Source: Candidatus Hermodarchaeota archaeon
Lineage (GTDB): Archaea > Asgardarchaeota > Lokiarchaeia > Sigyniarchaeales > SOKP01
Reading direction: 5' to 3'
DNA: 64,000 nt
Assembly: GCA_048885525.1 (NCBI GenBank)
Contig: JBHLLP010000002.1
Coordinates: forward strand, 75,114-139,113
Positions 1,433 through 47,216 of the stretch are shown here, one piece after another (position 1 is the first letter of the stretch; every line of letters begins with the position of its first letter). The notes beneath the pieces were generated by a model. It was given only the letters and a program-made list of their open reading frames with translations, searched no databases and was not told the origin of the DNA. Made by a program: the position numbers and the translations under genes.

Positions 1433-2347
1433 ATGATTGAAAATAAAAATAATAAATCGGCTGAGTCAAATAATAAAGAAAAGTGTTGTAGAAATCCAAA
1501 TATTAATATTAGAAATGGGGCAAAGGTATGTTTAAATTGTGGTATGGTAATAGGCGTTGTATTACTACAGAAAGAAAGAAGAGCTTTCACTTTAGATGAA
1601 AGAAGAAAAAGAAAGCGAACTGAAAAAAGGTGGAGAGCTTATGGTCCCAGGACCATTCTTTCAAATGAAATTATAGACAGTAAAGGTAAAATCATTGATG
1701 CTAAAAAAAGATTAAAAATTAAACGTTTATCAAAAATACAAAGATCTTTAACTACAGGAATAGAGAGAAATTTATGGGAAGCTGAGCCAAAAATGTCATA
1801 TCTGGTTTCTAAATTAAATATTCCTGATTATGTTTTTAAAACGGCCTGGACAATTTATAAATCTGCTGCGGAAAAGAAATTAACAATGGGTAGATCGATT
1901 AAAGGATTTATAGCTGCTTCTTTATATGTTGCAATACGAACTTATGAAATTCCTCGGTTATTAGAAGAAATAACTGACGCTCTCTTTATCTCTCGAAGAA
2001 CTGTCATTCGTTCTTTAGGAATATTATTTAGAGAAATATTACCAGATCTTAATCTTAAATATAAACCAATTACACCAGAACAATTAGTATTTAAATTTGG
2101 AAATGAGTTAAAAATACCTATCAAAATACAAAAAAAAGCAGTTAATTTACTAAGATATTCGTCTAATAGAGGGCTTTCTACTAATGGAAAAGATCCAAAA
2201 GGATTTGCAGCTTCAGCTATTTATATGGCGGCAAAATCTACTGATCATCGTAAAACTCAGAGTCAAGTTTCAGATACAGCAAAAATCACAGAAGTAACTT
2301 TAAGAACTAGAATAAAAGAAATTAAAGAATTATCCCGTTTAAATTAA
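1433..2347 (+). CDS. tfb: Transcription initiation factor IIB (TFB) paralog
   Basis: N-terminal zinc ribbon (CC...CLNCG), ERRAF B-reader, two cyclin repeats (GRSIKGFIAASLY; GKDPKGFAASAIY), C-terminal ITEVTLRTR. Confidence 0.95.
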   Translation: MIENKNNKSAESNNKEKCCRNPNINIRNGAKVCLNCGMVIGVVLLQKERRAFTLDERRKRKRTEKRWRAYGPRTILSNEIIDSKGKIIDAKKRLKIKRLSKIQRSLTTGIERNLWEAEPKMSYLVSKLNIPDYVFKTAWTIYKSAAEKKLTMGRSIKGFIAASLYVAIRTYEIPRLLEEITDALFISRRTVIRSLGILFREILPDLNLKYKPITPEQLVFKFGNELKIPIKIQKKAVNLLRYSSNRGLSTNGKDPKGFAASAIYMAAKSTDHRKTQSQVSDTAKITEVTLRTRIKEIKELSRLN

Positions 2348-2357
2348 GAGTGTATTC

Positions 2358-4412
2358 ATGAATTCGAAAGGGTTATTTTTAGTAAGTCCTAACATAGGAC
2401 ATCCCAAAATATTGAATATTGATAGTAAATTAACTAAAAAAGACTTTAAAACAGATTTATTAATCATATCTAATATAAAGAATCCAAAAAAAGTAAAAGA
2501 ATTCTTAACAGATAATATTAAATTAATACCTATTTTTGACTATAAGTGGAAATTAGAACAACTTCTAAAAAAAAGAGGTTTAAGAAAAAAAATCAAACGA
2601 TTATGGAGAAAAATAAAAGCTTTTTTCTCATTTAGAAAAAAGGAAAAACATTTTGAAAGTTCAATAGAAGAATTAGACAAGTTTGGAGAAAAACAAAAAA
2701 GAACAGTAAAAATAAAAAAGAAGGATATAAAGAAAATAAAGCCTCGCGCTTTTAGGGGAATCCCAATAATTACTAAAATCATAAATATAATATCAACAAC
2801 CTCAATAAAGATCAATAACTCAAAATATATTGATGATCAATATTGTAGACCTCAGAATTATTTAAGAAAATTAGACGTTTTTGATAATTTGGATTATTTC
2901 TTTAAAATTACTTTAGAATTTAAAATAACTGATGAGATTTTAAAATTTTTGTCAACCAAAAAGTTCGTAATGTTTGACATTTTAGTTGAAGATATAAATT
3001 TGGACAAAGAAATAAATTATCACGCTATTGTAATTTCAAAAAACGATTGGACAAATATCAATATCATACAAGCAACTGATTTACATATAGCTAAAAGAAA
3101 TGATGAAATATTTGATAAAATAAATAAAATGTATCGAAATCTTAGAAGTAAAAATATTAAAAAAATAAATCAAATAGAAACTAATCAACTAAACTCAAAA
3201 GATAAAGGTGATATTAGAAAATCTCTTTTTAAAATTGATCTCTCATTTAAAAAGAGACTGATTAATCCAAACAATCTTTTTAGAAAATTTATTGAGATTG
3301 TAAATAAGAAAGTAACCAAAAATGAAATTGACTTTATAATTATTACAGGAGATATTGTAGATTTTACTAATATTAGTAAAACACCAGAAAATAAAAATAA
3401 AATTTTTAGGTATAAAAAGAGTAATTGGAAAGTCTTCAAAATAATTGTCTTGAATATAAATCAGACTAATACTAAGGGTGTTAAAAGATCAACGGAAATA
3501 TTATGTCCAATCTTTACCATTCCCGGCAATCATGATTATCGCCCTTGGCAGTATGATTTAAATTGGGGAGGAATTTATAAAAAAATAGGGCTTAAAAAAA
3601 TTGAAGCTCAAGCATTAAAAGATGAATATTCAGCTTCTCCAATCAAAGCTATTTTAAAAAGTGAAAATGCATTAAAAGGATATTTGTCCGAAATAAATGC
3701 TTCACTAAATTACTATTTAAAATTAGAAAATTCTGTGTTTATTTTTTTAAATACTGGGGCGGATTCCTATAAAAAAATAACAGATTTTATATCAGGAAGC
3801 CCTTCTCTAACAGGTCTTACTCACAGGCAAATAGAATTTTTAAATAATATTATTGAATATAAGCACAATAAAAAATCTCAAATTTTTCTTTGTTTGCATG
3901 CACCTCCTATAAATACAAGAGAGAAACGAGGTATATTAAGCCGAATAAAGAAAAAATTTAAAAAAATGATGAGAATACATTTAGATCAGTTCAAAGAATC
4001 TAAATTTGCAAGTCTAAAAAGGAAAAGAGAAAAAGCCAGAATTGATAATAAATTTAATATAACATATGGAACGATTTCTTCTAATTGGGAGAAATTGATT
4101 GATTTTTGTATCAAATATTGTATTCTAACTATCTCAGGTCATACACACATGTTAAATGAATATAGATTGAAAAAATCTTTACAAAATAGCTCTAATGATA
4201 AGGAAGTGAAAAATTCATCTTTTTCAGTATTTTATGATGATTATTCTGAGATTTGTAAAAACATAAAGGATATTCAAAAATATAGTCCCTTTATAGTTCA
4301 AACTCCTGCGCTAGGATTAAAATCCTTTAAAAGACTTAAGAAAGCAGGAGCATATCGAGAAATAATAATAAAAAATGGAAAATTAGATTCATTTCAAGTT
4401 AAATATCTATAA
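2358..4412 (+). CDS. Large Lys-rich calcineurin-like metallophosphoesterase
   Basis: Motifs DLH, GDIVD, GNHD, LHAPP and GHTH appear in canonical order with long basic insertions. Confidence 0.85.
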   Translation: MNSKGLFLVSPNIGHPKILNIDSKLTKKDFKTDLLIISNIKNPKKVKEFLTDNIKLIPIFDYKWKLEQLLKKRGLRKKIKRLWRKIKAFFSFRKKEKHFESSIEELDKFGEKQKRTVKIKKKDIKKIKPRAFRGIPIITKIINIISTTSIKINNSKYIDDQYCRPQNYLRKLDVFDNLDYFFKITLEFKITDEILKFLSTKKFVMFDILVEDINLDKEINYHAIVISKNDWTNINIIQATDLHIAKRNDEIFDKINKMYRNLRSKNIKKINQIETNQLNSKDKGDIRKSLFKIDLSFKKRLINPNNLFRKFIEIVNKKVTKNEIDFIIITGDIVDFTNISKTPENKNKIFRYKKSNWKVFKIIVLNINQTNTKGVKRSTEILCPIFTIPGNHDYRPWQYDLNWGGIYKKIGLKKIEAQALKDEYSASPIKAILKSENALKGYLSEINASLNYYLKLENSVFIFLNTGADSYKKITDFISGSPSLTGLTHRQIEFLNNIIEYKHNKKSQIFLCLHAPPINTREKRGILSRIKKKFKKMMRIHLDQFKESKFASLKRKREKARIDNKFNITYGTISSNWEKLIDFCIKYCILTISGHTHMLNEYRLKKSLQNSSNDKEVKNSSFSVFYDDYSEICKNIKDIQKYSPFIVQTPALGLKSFKRLKKAGAYREIIIKNGKLDSFQVKYL

Positions 4413-4457
4413 ATAGTTTATTCATGACATAAAAAAGCAGTGGAGGTGAAAACTAAA

Positions 4458-4775
4458 ATAAAAGATGAGAAAATATGTCAGATATGTAGCTTTCCAAAAG
4501 AATTATGTATCTGTGAAAAATTAGGAGCCGAGGATCAACAAATAGAAATTTATAATGAAAAAAGAAGATGGGGGAAAAAAGTGACCATTGCTAAGTTTAA
4601 TGGTAACTTTAATATTGATTTAGATAATCTTATTACTAGAGCAAAGAAAAAGTGCGCTTCTGGTGGAACATATGGAGACAATTATATTGAAGTACAAGGA
4701 GATCATCGTTTTAGATTAAAAAAATTTCTAATTAATGAAGGTTTCCCTAAAGAAAAAATTTTAATTGAAGATTAA
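4458..4775 (+). CDS. sui1: Translation initiation factor aIF1 (SUI1); start placed at ATA 4458 (track uses GTG 4440)
   Basis: CxxCxxPxxLCxC zinc knuckle, RRWGKKVT, KKKCASGGT, IEVQGDH. SD GGAGGTGA at 4442-4449 overlaps both GTG codons and sits 8 nt before ATA 4458. Confidence 0.93.
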   Translation: MKDEKICQICSFPKELCICEKLGAEDQQIEIYNEKRRWGKKVTIAKFNGNFNIDLDNLITRAKKKCASGGTYGDNYIEVQGDHRFRLKKFLINEGFPKEKILIED

Positions 4776-4952
4776 AATTGTGAATGATGCATTAATTGGT
4801 TTAAAGCTATAGATGATTTTAGAGAATTTATAATAGATCTGGATTATATCTTTATTATTATAGAGATTTAAAAGCCTCTCTTTTGAAATCAAAAAAAATA
4901 TAAAAAATCAATAAATCACTTGAAAATTAATGATATTCTTCTTAATCCTATC

Positions 4953-7932: not shown

Positions 7933-8892
7933 TTAGTCACCTAATACAAAATTTTGCTTTTCAAGCCATTTAAGAATTTCTGAAAGACTTGCGGTTGCCA
8001 AAGCTATAGAACTATCAGCACATCCATAATAAAGTAGGATATCATCATTTTCTTGAATCCAGCCACATGGAAAAACAACTTTATCAACATCACCAAAGAT
8101 TTCATACGATTCTTTTGGAGAAAAGACCCACTCATCAGATCGTGCGATTACTTTGCAGGGATCTTTTAGATCTAAAAGTCCAAGTCCTAAGCGATAAATG
8201 ATACCACTAGCGGTTGTTTTAACTCCATGGTAAAGTATTAACCATCCAGAATCAGTTTTCAATGGAGGGGGAGATAAACCAATTTTATTTGCATCCCACC
8301 AACTTCCATCTCTAGCGGGAATAAGAAGTTTGTGATCACCCCAATGTTTAAGATCCGGTGAAAAAGCAATCCATATATGGGCACCAGTTCCTGACATTTT
8401 AGCAACGGGTCTATGAAGTATTGCCCATCGATTATTAAACTGAATTGGAAATATAGCAGCATCCTTGTTCTCTGGTGGCATAATAACCCCATAACGATTA
8501 AAATGCTTGAAATCTTTGGTACATGCTAATGAAACTAAAGGTCCAGCTTTAGAATAGGCAGTATAGATAATAACCCATAAATTTTTTTCTTCCAAGAATG
8601 TAATTCTAGGATCTTCAATACCCCATATTTCTTCTGGATAAGTCTTAGGATTTGGTGTCATAGTAGGTTGGGTATCAATATGCCAATTACTTATTCCATC
8701 TTTACTACGAGCTAAAGTAAAATGGGAAATTCCTCTTTTATCTTCTACTCTCATTAGAAGTATAATTTCATTATGAAATTTAATTGCACCTGCATTGAAA
8801 ACTGTATTCGCAAGATAAGGCAAATCTTTTATTGAAATAATTGGATTGGCTGGATGCCGCTTAAAAAGCTCATTAAAATTTGATTTTACGAT
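7933..8892 (-). CDS. GH130-like glycosidase/phosphorylase (five-bladed beta-propeller); probable ATC start
   Basis: FKRHPANPII (upstream of the track start), VFNAGA, GIEDPRI, NKDAAIFP, LHRP, YHGV, VVFPCG, YYGCAD. Confidence 0.9.
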   Translation of the reverse strand: MVKSNFNELFKRHPANPIISIKDLPYLANTVFNAGAIKFHNEIILLMRVEDKRGISHFTLARSKDGISNWHIDTQPTMTPNPKTYPEEIWGIEDPRITFLEEKNLWVIIYTAYSKAGPLVSLACTKDFKHFNRYGVIMPPENKDAAIFPIQFNNRWAILHRPVAKMSGTGAHIWIAFSPDLKHWGDHKLLIPARDGSWWDANKIGLSPPPLKTDSGWLILYHGVKTTASGIIYRLGLGLLDLKDPCKVIARSDEWVFSPKESYEIFGDVDKVVFPCGWIQENDDILLYYGCADSSIALATASLSEILKWLEKQNFVLGD

Positions 8893-8905
8893 TAGATTAA
8901 CACCT

Positions 8906-10132
8906 TTAAAATTCTAATTCTAAATTAACCTTTTGACAAGTTTTTTTAGCTTCTCTTGCTAGTTTGTATGCTTGATTATATTGTTTAGCAATAATTTCCC
9001 AAGAAACTACATTATCAAGATATCGCTTTAAATTCTCACCAAGTTTCAGTCGAAGATTCTCATTACAAGCTAGTTGAATTACCCTTTCTTTTAGCATTTT
9101 CTTTGTTGTAAATAATAAACCTCCACCACTTTCTAAAGTTTGAGCTGTTAATCCTTCCATTGGGGCTGTTGTTACATAAGGTTTATTTAAAGCTATTATC
9201 CTTGCTAATGTTCCAGATTGTGTTTCGTCAACCGTAGGTAATACAATGAAATCACAAATTGCCATTACTTTATAGTAGATATCTCCTCTAGGGATAAATT
9301 CATAATAATGAGCGATCCCTTTGTCTTGAAGTTCAAGAATGTCAGATTTCCACATTTCATAATCATTTTTATGATTCGGGTCTCGTAAAGTACCTGCAGC
9401 AAATAATTCCCATTTCTGACCACACTTTTCTTTTATCTTTTCATGAATCTCTCCCCAACTTGAAAGTAGTATGTCCCATCTTTTATTAGTTTGTATCCAT
9501 CCAATCATTCCAACAAGATGATCTGATAAATTCAATTGATCTAAACCCAGCTCTGTCTTTAATTTATTAATTTCATCTATTCCCCATCTTTTATCAGATC
9601 GGGCACCATGTGGAACCACCATAATATTTTTTGGAGTTTCCCATCCTCGGGCTCTAAAAGACCAATCCAATCTCCACTTTTGATAATGGCATTTAAAAAA
9701 AACTACATCACTTCTTTGGCAAAGTTGATAAATAAAATCAGCTTCAAAATCAGTAATCCGTCCATGAATAGTATGTGGTTCAACTACAATGGGATAATCA
9801 TCAATTGCCTCAAGAAGTTTAAGAAAACCTTCATTTCTATCCCCTATCCCACGTTTATCTCTATATTCATAAAGTCCATATTCATGTTCTAAATGAATTG
9901 CATATGGTTTCAACTCATCAATTTTTTTTGCAATAGGTTCATACCAATCATATCTATTTATCTCAATTAAAGGAAAAACCCCTTCTCCTTCTCCATCTGT
10001 ATGGCTAATTACAAAAACATCCCTTTGAGGATTTGTCTTTTGGATGAACTCTCTTGCTTCTTCAGCAAATGTAGCAATACCACAAAGTCGTGGTGGGTAA
10101 GAACTTATTATTACTATTGGTTGATTTGACAT
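8906..10132 (-). CDS. Glycosyltransferase family 4-like
   Basis: SSYPPRLCGIATF, EHEYGLY, VVPHG, QSGTLA; paralogous to the N-terminal half of 10137-12434. Confidence 0.88.
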   Translation of the reverse strand: MSNQPIVIISSYPPRLCGIATFAEEAREFIQKTNPQRDVFVISHTDGEGEGVFPLIEINRYDWYEPIAKKIDELKPYAIHLEHEYGLYEYRDKRGIGDRNEGFLKLLEAIDDYPIVVEPHTIHGRITDFEADFIYQLCQRSDVVFFKCHYQKWRLDWSFRARGWETPKNIMVVPHGARSDKRWGIDEINKLKTELGLDQLNLSDHLVGMIGWIQTNKRWDILLSSWGEIHEKIKEKCGQKWELFAAGTLRDPNHKNDYEMWKSDILELQDKGIAHYYEFIPRGDIYYKVMAICDFIVLPTVDETQSGTLARIIALNKPYVTTAPMEGLTAQTLESGGGLLFTTKKMLKERVIQLACNENLRLKLGENLKRYLDNVVSWEIIAKQYNQAYKLAREAKKTCQKVNLELEF

Positions 10133-10136
10133 TTTT

Positions 10137-12434
10137 TTACACGTTTAATTTTTCGGTTAAGTCAATCTCAGTTAAATTATCTAATAAATACATATTTAAA
10201 AGTGATAATAACCATGCTAAAGTTGATTCTGCTCCTTGATTTAGGTTAGGACCTGTTGGTGTTAATGAATCATAACATCCCCCTGTTTTATAATTATATA
10301 GTGAAGTATTTAAATCATTTCGACCTAAAAACCACTCTAGGCAATGACGTGCTTCTATGATCCATTTTTTATCTTGTGTAATTTTAAATGCTTCTATGCA
10401 TGCTTCAATTATACTTTCAGCTTCAAGTGATTGTTGGTCAAATCTCGCTTTTTCTCCGTTTCGAGGATACCAACCAGAATTGCCAATTGGAGTAAACTGT
10501 CCTTTATGATTCTTTTGAATTTTCACTAACCATTCTAATAATCTTAATCCTGCTTCAACCATTTCTCCTCGTTGTAACCATTGTCCAGACATTAGTAGAG
10601 CTTGTGGAATTTTTCCATTATCATAAGTTAAAGTGTCCTCTATCCATGGCCATTTATCACTAGCATTCGAACAATATAACTCAAATAAAGAGTTAGCTAT
10701 TTTTTCTCGATATCTTCTTATTTTGCTATCTCCTCCAAATCTAGCTAAGTAAGCATGAATTCCTATTAAACCTAAAGCTAATGCTCTAGGGGATTTAAAT
10801 TCTGATAAAACCGATACAGCTTTATCAAAGATTATTAAAGCTTGATCCCCGAATTCTTTTGATTTTGAAAAAGCTACTGTAATCCCTAAACTCCAAACAG
10901 CACGCCCATGACTATCTTCAGATCCTTTATCTTCAAGCCATTTACGATCATATCCTAAAAAGTTACGAAATCGACCATTTTCCTCATTAAAGGCGTGCAA
11001 TAAAAAACTAAAGTATTTACTATCAAGATTCCTTAGTAGATTATCTTCAATTAATAAGTTTTGAGCTAAAATTACTACTATTAACGCCCTAGCATTATCA
11101 TCTGTGCAATAACCATGCACTCGATTAGGTATTATAAAATTAGCATGCTGTAAAATACCAACATCATCAGTTAACCGATCTAGATGATCAAATTTTAGCT
11201 GAGGTAGATCGAATGGAGATGATCGTAATGATTTTATCCTTAAAATGGATTTTGGCTCTGATAGTCTTTTTTCAACAACTTCTGCAAATATCTTTATATA
11301 ATTTCTAGCAACTTCTTTCCAAACCATATCTCTAGAATATAAATAGGCTTTTTTACGCATAAGATGTCTCTCAGTTTCGTTATTTAATAGATTAATAATT
11401 TGATCTGCAATACTTTCCGGATCTTGAAAAGGTACTATTATTCCTTTCCCATCATCTAAAATTTCTTCAGCATACCAATAAGGTGTAGATATTATAGCCT
11501 TACCAGTTCCAAGAGCATAAGCAAGTGTTCCAGAGACGATTTGTTCTTTGTTTATATATGGAGTTACATAAATATCAGCAGCTCCTAAAAATTCGCATAA
11601 TTCCTCTAATTCTACAAACCTATTATAAAAAATTATATGATCTTCTACTCCTAATTCCCTAGCTCTTATTTGAAGAGAATACCGATATGATTCGCCATGT
11701 TCTTTCTTTACATTTGGATGTGTTGCACCAAGAACAATATAAGTCACATTTGGATGTGCTTTAATTATTTTGGGTAAGGCATCTATCATTGTTTCTATCC
11801 CTTTACCAGGATTAATCAAGCCGAAAGTCAAAATAACATCCTTTCCTTCAACTCCAAATTGATCTTTAAAAAAATTAGGGTCTATAAAAGGAACATCTGG
11901 AATTCCATGATGAATTACATTAATTTTATCATCAGAAATCCCATATTCTTCTTTTAAAATACGTTTAGCTTTATGACTCATGACGATTAAACGATCTGAC
12001 AATTTATTTATTGTTTCAACAATCTTTCGTACTTTGGGTGGAGGATTGGGTATAAGAGTATGTAATGTTGATACAATTGGCATATGTATATTACGAAGTA
12101 AGGTTAAGATATAACTTCCATATTCTCCACTATAAATGCCAAATTCATGTTGTAGGCAAACTACATCAACCTTATTAATATTCAAAAATTCTGCAGCCAG
12201 AGAATAATCTTTTAATCTATTAACATTCAATTCAAAACGAACATGATTAGGATAATGATAACCTTCAGGTATATCATTCATTGCTAAAGCCCAACATTTA
12301 CTTTTTGGTAATTCATTTGAAACTGCTTGTAAAAGATCGGCAGTGAAAGTTGCAATACCACATTGACGTGGTATGTAATTACCAATAAAAGCAATATTTC
12401 TCAAATTTTGATGGTATATTCTCTTTACACTCAT
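10137..12434 (-). CDS. GT4 glycosyltransferase fused to a C-terminal (alpha/alpha)6-barrel glycosidase-like domain
   Basis: PRQCGIATF, QHEFGIY, GKGIE, SGTLAYA in the N-half; GILQHA, GYCTDDNAR, SEDSHGR, FDQQ, NQGAESTL in the C-half. Confidence 0.9.
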   Translation of the reverse strand: MSVKRIYHQNLRNIAFIGNYIPRQCGIATFTADLLQAVSNELPKSKCWALAMNDIPEGYHYPNHVRFELNVNRLKDYSLAAEFLNINKVDVVCLQHEFGIYSGEYGSYILTLLRNIHMPIVSTLHTLIPNPPPKVRKIVETINKLSDRLIVMSHKAKRILKEEYGISDDKINVIHHGIPDVPFIDPNFFKDQFGVEGKDVILTFGLINPGKGIETMIDALPKIIKAHPNVTYIVLGATHPNVKKEHGESYRYSLQIRARELGVEDHIIFYNRFVELEELCEFLGAADIYVTPYINKEQIVSGTLAYALGTGKAIISTPYWYAEEILDDGKGIIVPFQDPESIADQIINLLNNETERHLMRKKAYLYSRDMVWKEVARNYIKIFAEVVEKRLSEPKSILRIKSLRSSPFDLPQLKFDHLDRLTDDVGILQHANFIIPNRVHGYCTDDNARALIVVILAQNLLIEDNLLRNLDSKYFSFLLHAFNEENGRFRNFLGYDRKWLEDKGSEDSHGRAVWSLGITVAFSKSKEFGDQALIIFDKAVSVLSEFKSPRALALGLIGIHAYLARFGGDSKIRRYREKIANSLFELYCSNASDKWPWIEDTLTYDNGKIPQALLMSGQWLQRGEMVEAGLRLLEWLVKIQKNHKGQFTPIGNSGWYPRNGEKARFDQQSLEAESIIEACIEAFKITQDKKWIIEARHCLEWFLGRNDLNTSLYNYKTGGCYDSLTPTGPNLNQGAESTLAWLLSLLNMYLLDNLTEIDLTEKLNV

Positions 12435-12517
12435 AAAAATTATTTTATTTTTTACTAAGATTTTTGTTATATTTACTTAAAATATGTTAATTTAAATACA
12501 AATTGAAAAGAAGAGAT

Positions 12518-12958
12518 TTACTTTATAATATCTGTTATAAAACAAGTTTCTACAATTTTAATACCTTCAATTTGAGAAATTTTTCCTTCAATTAATGGAT
12601 TAAACTCTTCAATTGAAGAAATCTCAATTTTTATTAATAGACCACAGTCACCAGATAATCTCCAGATATCTGTTACTTCTTCAATATCTTTTAAATTGTT
12701 TATTATTCTCTTAATTTCTTTAAAATTTAGTTCCAATTTTACGGTTGCATTAATTTTTGGCTGGCTTTCAATATCATATTCAATAGTAAATTTGTCAATT
12801 ATTTCATTTTCTATCATCTTTTTAACACGACGTCTGATAGTCGCTTCTGTTTTTCCTACAACCTCAGCAATTTCACTATAAGATTTTCTACTATCTTCTT
12901 TCAATTCCTCTAAAATAACAAGATCAATTGCATCCAACATTTTATTAATCTCAATCAA
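12518..12958 (-). CDS. Lrp/AsnC family transcriptional regulator (start possibly ATG 12940)
   Basis: LDAIDLVILEELKEDSRKSYSEIA...EATIRRRV HTH and a C-terminal RAM domain (LSGD). Confidence 0.92.
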   Translation of the reverse strand: MIEINKMLDAIDLVILEELKEDSRKSYSEIAEVVGKTEATIRRRVKKMIENEIIDKFTIEYDIESQPKINATVKLELNFKEIKRIINNLKDIEEVTDIWRLSGDCGLLIKIEISSIEEFNPLIEGKISQIEGIKIVETCFITDIIK

Positions 12959-13120
12959 GATAATAACCGATATTATATAAAATTTAGGTTTATGAAAAAG
13001 ACTTTGTATTAAAATGTAGTATTATAAATTATTTTGTTTATTAAATTATCAAAAAGTATCACATCCGAGCATTTAAGGTAATAACTTAAGAAAAGCTAAA
13101 TTTTCCAAATCGAAAAACAT

Positions 13121-13567
13121 TCATTTTAAGATTGGATTTGTAATAAAATTAATAATTTTAGGCAGAGTTTCATGAATAAATTCATTAGAAGGATTACCTA
13201 TCTTTATTCCTTTGCATTTTCTTTCTAAATATATATTATATCGTTTTTTCCTATAAAGATAGAATAATCTTTTATTATTTGACTTTAAAATTAAAAATGG
13301 GAAGATTTTACATATTATAGGTTTTATTTGGTGTATTTTACATTTAGATTTCCCATCTGAAGTTTCTTGAAAAATACAATTTCCACTTATTGTTCGTTTA
13401 AGGAAATATTTTATTGGATATTTATTATAATTAAAAATTTCGCTCCCAAACAATATATAAATTTTCTCATATTCATTTTTTTCTAAAGAGATATCATAAG
13501 AACGACAGCATAGTCCACAGGATACACATTTCCATGATTCTACTTTTCTCCATGATATAAATTTCAT
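13121..13567 (-). CDS. YkgJ-family CxxCxxCC cysteine-cluster protein
   Basis: CVSCGLCC, CIF, CKIHQIKPIICKIFPF. Confidence 0.88.
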   Translation of the reverse strand: MKFISWRKVESWKCVSCGLCCRSYDISLEKNEYEKIYILFGSEIFNYNKYPIKYFLKRTISGNCIFQETSDGKSKCKIHQIKPIICKIFPFLILKSNNKRLFYLYRKKRYNIYLERKCKGIKIGNPSNEFIHETLPKIINFITNPILK

Positions 13568-13613
13568 TTGTCAGCAATTTTGTTTTATTATTTAATCTAT
13601 AATTTTTTTGAAA

Positions 13614-13829
13614 TTATTCAAGTGTTTCTTTTTTCCAATCCTTCATTTTCTCCAAATTCTTGAATTCTTCCCCCGGTGGATGATATATTTCTTTATTGAA
13701 TTTATAGGATTTTATTATTTCTTTCTCTAAAGGTTTGGTTTGACCGCAAGAATTACAAATGAGAACATTATTATCTTTATCTTTAGATGGAAGCATCATT
13801 CCATCACATTTTTCACAAAATTCAACCAT
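13614..13829 (-). CDS. TFS/RpoM (Rpb9-like) N-terminal zinc-ribbon protein lacking the C-terminal ribbon
   Basis: MVEFCEKCDGMMLP...LICNSCG; 71 aa, no QxRxADE. Confidence 0.75.
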   Translation of the reverse strand: MVEFCEKCDGMMLPSKDKDNNVLICNSCGQTKPLEKEIIKSYKFNKEIYHPPGEEFKNLEKMKDWKKETLE

Positions 13830-45653: not shown

Positions 45654-47216
45654 TTATTTTTTTTCCTCGAGTTTTTTAATTAGTCCAAATTTTATTATAA
45701 TTGCAGAACTTATAACAATGATAATAAAGATGATCCAAATTGCTTCATAAGTCCAAATGTTCGTATACCATAGAGGTTTTGTTAAATTATTGAATTTATA
45801 AGGAGAATTTGTCTTTACCCATTTAACGCCTAGACACCATAATTGAGAATATCTTTCTTTTGCTTCTATTGTATATACAATTGTTGGTATATTTGATTCA
45901 AATAAAGCTTGGTATCCTTTATTTGAATATTTATCACCAGTATTAATATAAGAAAAATTATAAGGAGAAGATTCAAAATCGTTTAGGGAGGGAGAACCAC
46001 GCATTCCTAATAAAATCTCTGCTGCACGATTATTTATCATTTCAATCCATTCAATGTCACTGGTTGGAATCATAATTTTATCCAAATTAACACCAGAATC
46101 AATAGTCATATTTAGGAGAATTTCATAAAAGTCATCATAGAAGGGATGACCTGAGTCTGGTCTATAAGGATCAAAATCTAGATAAAGATCATTATCACGT
46201 GTAAAGTTAAGAACTTGTTCAAAAGTAGGTATTTTTATTCCTCTATATGATTCTGCTTGTGATTTTGATATAATTCCTTTTGAAATAGTATCAAAAGGAT
46301 CCTTTTTTATAAACCAAGAACCAGCATCTAATTCTTGGAGTTCTGAAAAAGTAAAACTCTCTGCTTTGTCATTTTTTCTATTAGGAAAATGATCTGAAAT
46401 ATTAGTTGTTCTCAGTAATAGATCGTCATGCATTAAAAAGGGAACTCCATCAAAACTAATCCGAATATCAACTTCCCAACCCACCACCAAATCATAATCA
46501 AGCACCGCAATACCTGACTCGATTGTGTTTTCTGGAGCAAGAGAAGAAGCTCCTCTATGTGCTATTAGATCTGGTTTAGAAGGTAATTCTCCGTAGATAA
46601 CAGTTGTAGGTATATATAATATGGGAAAAATATAAGCAAAGAGGTATAAAGAAATAAGGCAAGAAAAAATGAATTTTGATTTCTTATTTGGATCAATAAA
46701 TTTTTCAGAAAGGTAATTTTTAATTTTTGGAAAAATCTTGATTATTGGATATAGTGTTATAATAAGAAGGATATCAAGGAGAAAAAAGAAAAAGATACTA
46801 TAAAAATCCAAAACATATAGGATTTTTTTATATTCACCAAACATATCAAGAAAGTATAATATCACAATAAATAAAAGAGTGTAAAAAACAATTAGAACAA
46901 TTGGTAATATTCTATTTAATTTATGAGGGGAAATTTCATCCCTTTTTGTAAATCGCTTAATATTAATGAAACTTAGTGCCAAACCATATGGTAAAGGTAA
47001 TATTAGAACTATTCTTACTAAAAGAATAATATCAAAATCAAATCCTACCCAACTTGATACCTCTGAATTAATTTCATACCAATAGGGATCAAGAGCATAA
47101 ATTAACTCTGTAAATATTATTAAAATAACACATAAAATGACGTAAAGGACAATCCAGCGCTTCCCTTTTTTTCTTTGTAATTTATCTAATAATAACATAA
47201 TATTTTTAAATAACAA
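45654..47216 (-). CDS. Six-TM glycerophosphodiester phosphodiesterase, GDE2/GDE3 (GDPD5/GDPD2)-like
   Basis: Five N-terminal TMs; IAHRG..APENT, WEVD, FLMHD..L.RTTN, AGSWF..DPF, LWCLGV, PLW; one C-terminal TM. Confidence 0.88.
   Translation of the reverse strand: MLFKNIMLLLDKLQRKKGKRWIVLYVILCVILIIFTELIYALDPYWYEINSEVSSWVGFDFDIILLVRIVLILPLPYGLALSFINIKRFTKRDEISPHKLNRILPIVLIVFYTLLFIVILYFLDMFGEYKKILYVLDFYSIFFFFLLDILLIITLYPIIKIFPKIKNYLSEKFIDPNKKSKFIFSCLISLYLFAYIFPILYIPTTVIYGELPSKPDLIAHRGASSLAPENTIESGIAVLDYDLVVGWEVDIRISFDGVPFLMHDDLLLRTTNISDHFPNRKNDKAESFTFSELQELDAGSWFIKKDPFDTISKGIISKSQAESYRGIKIPTFEQVLNFTRDNDLYLDFDPYRPDSGHPFYDDFYEILLNMTIDSGVNLDKIMIPTSDIEWIEMINNRAAEILLGMRGSPSLNDFESSPYNFSYINTGDKYSNKGYQALFESNIPTIVYTIEAKERYSQLWCLGVKWVKTNSPYKFNNLTKPLWYTNIWTYEAIWIIFIIIVISSAIIIKFGLIKKLEEKK

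Follow-up and report, generated by a model that had tools for sequence, protein, structure and literature searches.

Does an enzyme family known from the surface of animal cells have a full-length relative in the archaea and, if so, what could such an enzyme do in an archaeal membrane? The question is raised by a gene on the minus strand of the window analysed here, a stretch of 64,000 nucleotides from an Asgard archaeon (Candidatus Hermodarchaeota archaeon, assembly GCA_048885525.1, contig JBHLLP010000002.1, positions 75,114 to 139,113). The product of the gene has five transmembrane (TM) helices, then a GDPD (glycerophosphodiester phosphodiesterase) catalytic domain, and finally a sixth TM helix. 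The animal proteins of this design, GDE2 (GDPD5), GDE3 (GDPD2) and GDE6 (GDPD4), have been studied as regulators at the cell surface, in neuronal differentiation, motor-neuron survival and the release of uPAR and glypicans, and the family is defined by its six TM helices. In the literature searched, we found no paper linking Asgard archaea to GDE2/GDE3/GDE6, nor GDPD5 to archaea in a relevant way.

We find that the archaeal protein is a full-length homologue of GDE2/GDE3/GDE6, TM module included. The Asgard protein, the animal GDE2/GDE3/GDE6, a clade of bacteria of the class Anaerolineae and some protist proteins are one family. The whole six-TM protein, with its membrane module, is present in Asgard archaea and Anaerolineae as well as in Ichthyosporea and Amoebozoa; the age and breadth of the family are therefore much greater than one would gather from work on animals.

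Homology over the full length

Among 1.84 billion cluster representatives, a profile built from 21 Asgard sequences found 448 matches below 1e-30. The best 150 of these were inspected, and what is said here of eukaryotic membership is drawn from them. After the Asgard matches come many proteins of 530-650 amino acids (aa) that align in a single stretch, over profile positions of about 5-505 and from their own residue 30-45 onward. GDPD5, GDPD2 and GDPD4 are all matched by the Asgard profile from one end to the other (E 1e-94 to 1e-60). The matches named as GDPD5-like or GDPD2 (E 1e-94 to 1e-71, over the same positions) come from a crinoid, an annelid, a nemertean, a snail, a sea cucumber, birds and tunicates, and the named matches from outside the animals from the ichthyosporean Chromosphaera perkinsii and the amoebozoans Mastigamoeba balamuthi, Pelomyxa schiedti and Amoeba proteus. 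All the eukaryotic members that could be named are Amorphea.

The pairwise comparison agrees with the profile. In BLASTP, a bat GDPD5 (P0315) is 29% identical over 348 aa, a stretch that runs from TM5 to TM6 (E 3e-39). A preliminary description of the locus, made from its letters, had listed a series of motifs shared with GDPD5, and all of them recur in this alignment: LGPKPALIGHRG, ISLDGVPFLMHD..LRRTTN, AGQWFLKTDPF, PPREHPYR, FSLLWC.GV and PSPLW. The one pair listed from the TM region was recovered by hhalign, which aligns EISPHKLNRI with QMNLHWLHKM.

Similarity extending beyond the GDPD domain had been set as a test of the relationship, and the TM region alone does match GDPD5. A TM-only Asgard hidden Markov model (HMM; positions 1 to about 200) finds the N-terminal membrane region of mammalian GDPD5 with 35 bits, the two being collinear (10-192 onto 39-212), and gives at least 17 bits on 20 of 24 eukaryotic proteins, with no match to reversed or shuffled copies. 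When the Asgard and eukaryotic TM alignments are compared by hhalign, the probability of homology is 98% (E 2e-13) and the score is 89.7 over 176 columns, as against 19.7 for the reversed control, 10-15 for column-shuffled and 16-35 for block-shuffled controls.

The predicted fold points in the same direction. The AlphaFold2 model (21 homologues; mean pLDDT 89.7, pTM 0.87) was used for a fold search of the ESM Atlas, in which it aligned with a chordate GP-PDE cluster over 493 residues (10-520), with TM-scores of 0.82/0.73 and a root-mean-square deviation of 3.7. In the PDB, Foldseek matched the whole model to soluble GDPD domains only (TM-score by target 0.77-0.84) and to no six-TM GDE structure, and the isolated TM module had no match at E <= 0.001. 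The best VIA-align matches of the isolated module were designed helical bundles (Z 9.8); this value is within the noise range of helical proteins, and the matches were set aside.

Architecture, predicted topology and active site

The gene occupies 45654..47198 on the minus strand and encodes 514 aa from an ATG at 47198, with the stop codon at 45654-45656. The longest open reading frame (45654..47216, minus strand) has 520 aa and a TTG start at 47216, from which residues are numbered throughout. The ATG is the most likely start because an identical protein in the database (P0002) is 514 aa long, and because the homologues start from the corresponding methionine. The gene is preceded by an A/T-rich spacer of 73 bp; the G+C content of the window is about 29%. 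The closest homologues of the protein come from metagenome-assembled genomes (MAGs) of Lokiarchaeota/Promethearchaeota, which identifies the host as a Lokiarchaeial Asgard archaeon.

Hydropathy marks out segments 17-46, 53-87, 99-128, 131-165, 181-208 and 484-517, five before the catalytic domain and one after it, and the AlphaFold2 model has the same 5+1 helices. Together with the Pfam match of the domain, this bears out the layout that the preliminary description had read from the sequence. The N-terminal five-helix module (residues 17-208; 46593..47168, on the minus strand like all the features that follow) rests additionally on counts of lysine and arginine (K+R) and on homology to the GDPD5 TM module. 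The catalytic domain (residues 220-472; 45801..46559) matches Pfam PF03009 with E 1.8e-19 and, by Foldseek, the solved GDPD structures. The sixth helix (residues 484-517; 45666..45767), delimited by hydropathy, the model, K+R counts and conservation, has the family-wide P481 just before it and W494 within it, and is followed by a short K-rich tail predicted to be cytoplasmic.

The K+R counts were made per segment across the 21 aligned Asgard proteins. The mean is 4.3 at the N-terminus, 5.1 in loop 2-3, 6.0 in loop 4-5 and 3.4 in the C-terminal tail, all predicted to be inside, as against 0.0 in loop 1-2 and 0.8 in loop 3-4, predicted to be outside. The positive-inside pattern is clear, and both termini are therefore predicted to be cytoplasmic and the GDPD domain to be outside. 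All five N-x-S/T sequons fall in the ectodomain so defined (residues 204-489), and a conserved motif, PYW.(D/E)IN, sits in loop 1-2 on the predicted outside. The same topology has been published for GDE2/GDE3/GDE6, with cytoplasmic termini and the catalytic domain outside (PMC7033719).

The animal proteins thus resemble the Asgard protein in the 5TM-GDPD-1TM order and in the placing of the termini and the catalytic domain. They differ in having trafficking tails of about 40 residues at the N-terminus and 60-100 residues at the C-terminus, whereas the Asgard protein is shorter, has neither tail and resides in an archaeal membrane. The prokaryotic members are in effect small, tail-less versions suited to structural and enzymological work, and one of them (P0116) is from the cultured Promethearchaeum syntrophicum.

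The catalytic residues common to all groups are H220, R221, E229, E248, D250, H263 and D264. The first catalytic histidine, His220 (codon 46557..46559), aligns with GDPD5 His233, and the second, His263 (46428..46430), with GDPD5 His275. Between them lies E248-V249-D250 (46467..46475), the Glu-x-Asp motif that binds the metal in GDPD enzymes. Its two acidic residues do not vary among the 21 Asgard sequences, and their conservation is 92-100% across the three groups (Asgard, Anaerolineae and eukaryotes). The catalytic His, ExD and His, which the preliminary description had listed as retained, are therefore in place (H220, E248, D250 and H263, in an alignment to GDPD5 H233, D262 and H275). In GDPD5, the H233A mutant is catalytically dead (PMC7033719).

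A second set of residues characterizes the family rather than GDPD enzymes in general: P198, P203, S254, F260, H357, W460, P481 and W494 are kept in the Asgard, Anaerolineae and eukaryotic members and are absent in the soluble outgroup. Four of them, P198, P203, P481 and W494, lie at the junctions of the membrane and catalytic domains.

Two other identities can be set aside on these grounds. The bacterial membrane GDPDs of PF10110 (GPDPase_memb), mostly from Bacillota, likewise combine a GDPD domain with a membrane region of several helices, but their membrane domain is unrelated to the Asgard one. The Asgard protein has no match to PF10110 at E up to 1, the folds match with a TM-score of only 0.51-0.52, and the TM-only profile does not match a protein of this type (P0373). 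The window's protein is therefore neither one of these classical membrane GDPDs nor nested among them. The soluble UgpQ/GlpQ-type GDPDs, such as B. subtilis GlpQ (5t9c) and the T. tengcongensis enzyme (2pz0), have the catalytic TIM-barrel fold and catalytic residues in common with the Asgard protein, but they have no membrane module and lack S254, F260, H357, W460 and P481. They are single-domain proteins of about 250-350 aa, an identity excluded by the 514 aa and six TM helices found here. The NCBIfam UgpQ/GlpQ equivalog models score 63 and 36 bits, far under their cut-offs of 264 and 254.

Distribution and descent

Is the protein then a eukaryotic signature protein, as the preliminary description had proposed? 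The part of the proposal that stands is the homology to GDE2/GDE3/GDE6 over the full length. The part that does not stand is the exclusive tie of eukaryotes to Asgard archaea. A profile of 10 full-length members of a 16-row clade in an overview tree was scanned over one genome per prokaryotic species. Its matches fell mainly into two sets, the stronger in more than 40 genomes of Anaerolineae (Anaerolineaceae, Brevefilum), a class of the Chloroflexota, and the weaker in Asgard archaea. The Anaerolineae proteins likewise show the 5+1 TM layout over the full length. They are like the Asgard protein in architecture, length class and family-specific residues, with about 29-38% identity to Asgard members, but in the trees they are the nearest neighbours of the eukaryotic proteins.

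The first tree (LG+G4, 82 rows, ultrafast bootstrap and SH-aLRT supports) was built with soluble GDPDs as outgroup, from which the six-TM proteins split at 100/100. Within them, the eukaryotes form one group (99/88) and the Anaerolineae another, a single bacterial clade (100/100). These two groups join each other (100/96), which counts against the reading of a eukaryotic signature protein, while 40 of the 41 Asgard rows fall on the opposite side (72/90) and the window's protein is outside the joint clade. A second tree under a site-heterogeneous model (LG+C20+F+G4 with posterior mean site frequencies, PMSF; 45 rows) retained the union of eukaryotes and Anaerolineae (SH-aLRT 95). It should be noted, however, that in an approximately unbiased (AU) test the arrangement of eukaryotes + Asgard versus Anaerolineae + outgroup was 0.31 log-likelihood units better and was not rejected (p-AU 0.504). 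Thus, each of the three ingroup clusters is well supported, but the trees do not fix the position of the root and would allow more than one direction of descent.

That eukaryotes obtained GDE2/GDE3/GDE6 from an Asgard ancestor, with the Anaerolineae acquiring the gene secondarily, would make the family a true eukaryotic signature. We consider this history possible, if somewhat unlikely. Diversity is by far the greatest among the Asgard members, with Loki-, Hel-, Thor- and Heimdall-type lineages, the eukaryotic members extend past the animals into Ichthyosporea and Amoebozoa, and the AU test leaves the required branching standing, all of which would suit such a descent. Yet every tree joins the eukaryotes to the Anaerolineae, never to an Asgard lineage, and by raw similarity the matches of the eukaryotic proteins to Chloroflexota loci are as good as, or better than, those to Asgard loci. 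Moreover, among the nameable matches none is from plants, algae, excavates or the SAR group (stramenopiles, alveolates and Rhizaria), and within the Asgard archaea themselves the gene is patchy. As the trees place the eukaryotes beside the Anaerolineae and do not fix the root, the evolutionary claim should stay modest.

The patchiness is seen at two levels. In the Asgard phylum, the TM-only profile finds the gene in 70 of 400 genomes, representing 26 of 85 genera. Of the 53 further species assigned to this GTDB genus, only six have the full-length protein, and many genomes that are 95-100% complete are without the gene. The six-TM GDPD is therefore an accessory gene in this organism and not a core one. 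In the congeners without it, the flanking genes are 40-60% identical or absent, which makes the GTDB "genus" too divergent for synteny, and a clean presence/absence indel is not demonstrable. Two of the six congeneric copies have a single in-frame stop (TAG in G214:C34:1760-3316 and TAA in G211:C76:71142-72698); they could be pseudogenes, sequencing errors or cases of recoding.

A few members of the family stand apart in their setting or length. Two basal rows of the tree lie on eukaryote-looking contigs, where the adjacent genes are split as if by introns. Asgard-type six-TM GDPD genes also occur on contigs binned to other phyla, namely in a Deferrimicrobium MAG (L041), a Nanopelagicaceae MAG (L071) and a Bathyarchaeia MAG (L060), and one database protein (P0126) is 100% identical to the copy in the first of these. 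The three contigs are probably mis-binned Asgard DNA rather than transfers. The two Mastigamoeba balamuthi homologues (P0133, 886 aa, and P0242, 1122 aa) are much longer than the others. In one of the pair the match is broken into three stretches, and the other carries a pumilio-family annotation; either fused gene models or genuine multi-domain proteins could account for this.

Proposed function

What the enzyme does in the archaeon has to be judged from its sequence. The gene encodes an intact phosphodiesterase of the GDPD superfamily that is integral to the membrane, and we think it probable that this enzyme works at the cell surface, hydrolysing the phosphodiester of a polar head group that is embedded in the membrane or close to it. 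The conserved five-helix module and the sixth helix are predicted to keep the catalytic domain outside the cell, at the membrane, with the termini in the cytoplasm, and the chemistry would be that of a metal and two histidines, as is typical for GDPD enzymes. A glycerophospho- or inositolphospho-lipid, a lyso-lipid and a glycolipid are candidate substrates. By analogy with GDE3, which acts on lysophosphatidylinositol and glycosylphosphatidylinositol (GPI), and GDE2, which acts on GPI, the membrane module probably presents the head group to the active site. A role beyond anchoring is indicated for the membrane part by the preservation of the five-helix sequence from archaea to mammals and by the residues specific to the junctions. 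Sequence and model show the architecture, the fold, the catalytic residues, the homology over the full length and the predicted topology, whereas a substrate in the membrane, as against a dissolved one, is inferred, as is its identity.

An inositol phospholipid is a plausible constituent of this cell, because the genome encodes one myo-inositol-1-phosphate synthase and three CDP-alcohol phosphatidyltransferases. The synthase gene lies next to an ITPK1-like gene with an Ins(1,3,4)P3 5/6-kinase ATP-grasp domain (L085, G000:C17:40500-48500); the two (2822-3736, plus strand, and 3774-4913, minus strand) are convergent and 37 bp apart. The pair hints at soluble inositol phosphate metabolism.

Several points weigh against a head-group hydrolase at the surface. 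Archaeal lipids are built on sn-glycerol-1-phosphate, whereas the characterised GDPD enzymes cut sn-glycero-3-phospho diesters. The cell's own lipids may therefore not be the substrate, and foreign, bacterial-type lipids or diesters become possible, which would favour scavenging. With 6 of 53 congeners and 70 of 400 genomes in the phylum carrying it, the gene could serve a dispensable role in scavenging as readily as one in surface remodelling. The outward placing of the catalytic domain is itself a prediction. Finally, the neighbourhood offers no pointer to substrate or pathway: no neighbour family recurs in more than 7 of 34 Asgard loci. The families shared with the window reflect close relatives only, and the neighbours in the window itself (a beta-lactamase-fold protein, a nitroreductase/ferredoxin, PadR, Hsp20 and a HAD hydrolase) suggest no functional link.

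Nutrient scavenging is accordingly the alternative that survives best, and we rate it as unlikely. Here the protein would be a membrane-tethered, GlpQ-like ecto-enzyme acting on soluble glycerophosphodiesters from the environment or from a partner and yielding glycerol phosphate and an alcohol for uptake and catabolism, with the TM module as an anchor only. The stereochemistry of archaeal lipids would be no obstacle if the substrates were bacterial, and scavenging genes are often accessory and patchy, as this one is. The host genome (3.58 Mb, 99.3% complete) has nine GDPD genes in all. Eight of them encode soluble proteins of about 250 aa, an unusually large repertoire for glycerophosphodiester hydrolysis, and the six-TM protein is the only membrane form. 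Four of the soluble genes stand in tandem on one contig (C38; G000:C38:229-2878). In the literature searched, Asgard GDPDs figure only as generic "UgpQ", and genome surveys treat this as a possible source of glycerol 3-phosphate (PMC6737245; PMC9723677). On the other side, the eight soluble paralogues mean that cytoplasmic breakdown of the UgpQ type is covered elsewhere. A simple anchor would need neither five helices whose sequence is preserved between Asgard archaea and mammals nor family-specific junction residues (P198, P203, P481 and W494), and no transporter gene is linked to the gene among its neighbours in the window or at the 34 Asgard loci. The conserved module and the junction residues are what lead us to prefer hydrolysis of a head group at the membrane.

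GPI-anchored proteins: a shared substrate?

If the animal enzymes cleave GPI, might the archaeal enzyme do the same, cutting a GPI-like glycolipid anchor and so freeing lipid-anchored proteins from the archaeal surface? The full-length homology and the shared predicted topology with the GPI-cleaving enzymes (PMC7033719) would allow it, and a 2026 study in Nature reports components of GPI-anchor synthesis to be Asgard-derived, with GDPD enzymes unmentioned (PMC12872458). The preliminary description had called for a search for PIG-type anchor genes. The outcome was negative for the Pfam models of PIG-A, PIG-U and PIG-M, which had no match in the 99.3%-complete genome; for PIG-U and PIG-M this is weak evidence, because the two models matched nothing in any control genome either. 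The GPI-related families that did respond are four PIG-L-type deacetylases and one C13 (PIG-K/legumain) peptidase. Both are broad families, which lessens what their presence can say. GPI-anchored proteins are not known from Asgard archaea, and substrate choice varies already among the animal paralogues. On balance, we hold anchor shedding in this archaeon to be improbable.

Equally doubtful in our view is the conjunction of the two larger ideas, that the six-TM GDE family is of Asgard origin and passed vertically to eukaryotes, and that the archaeal enzyme already cut inositol-phosphate glycolipid anchors or head groups. Were it true, GDE2/GDE3/GDE6 would belong to an Asgard-derived lipid-anchor toolkit, and the archaeal enzyme would be a forerunner of GPI-anchor shedding.

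Two observations on neighbouring and related genes may be recorded here. The only C13 match of the genome is a protein of 504 aa (L086, G000:C6:49500-54500; 1891-3405, minus strand), with the Peptidase_C13 domain at residues 260-470. On a tunicate-like metagenome contig (L081), a GDPD5-like gene adjoins a GT22 (PIG-B/ALG9-type) mannosyltransferase gene and a C2orf69-family gene (8001-9527, 11075-13692).

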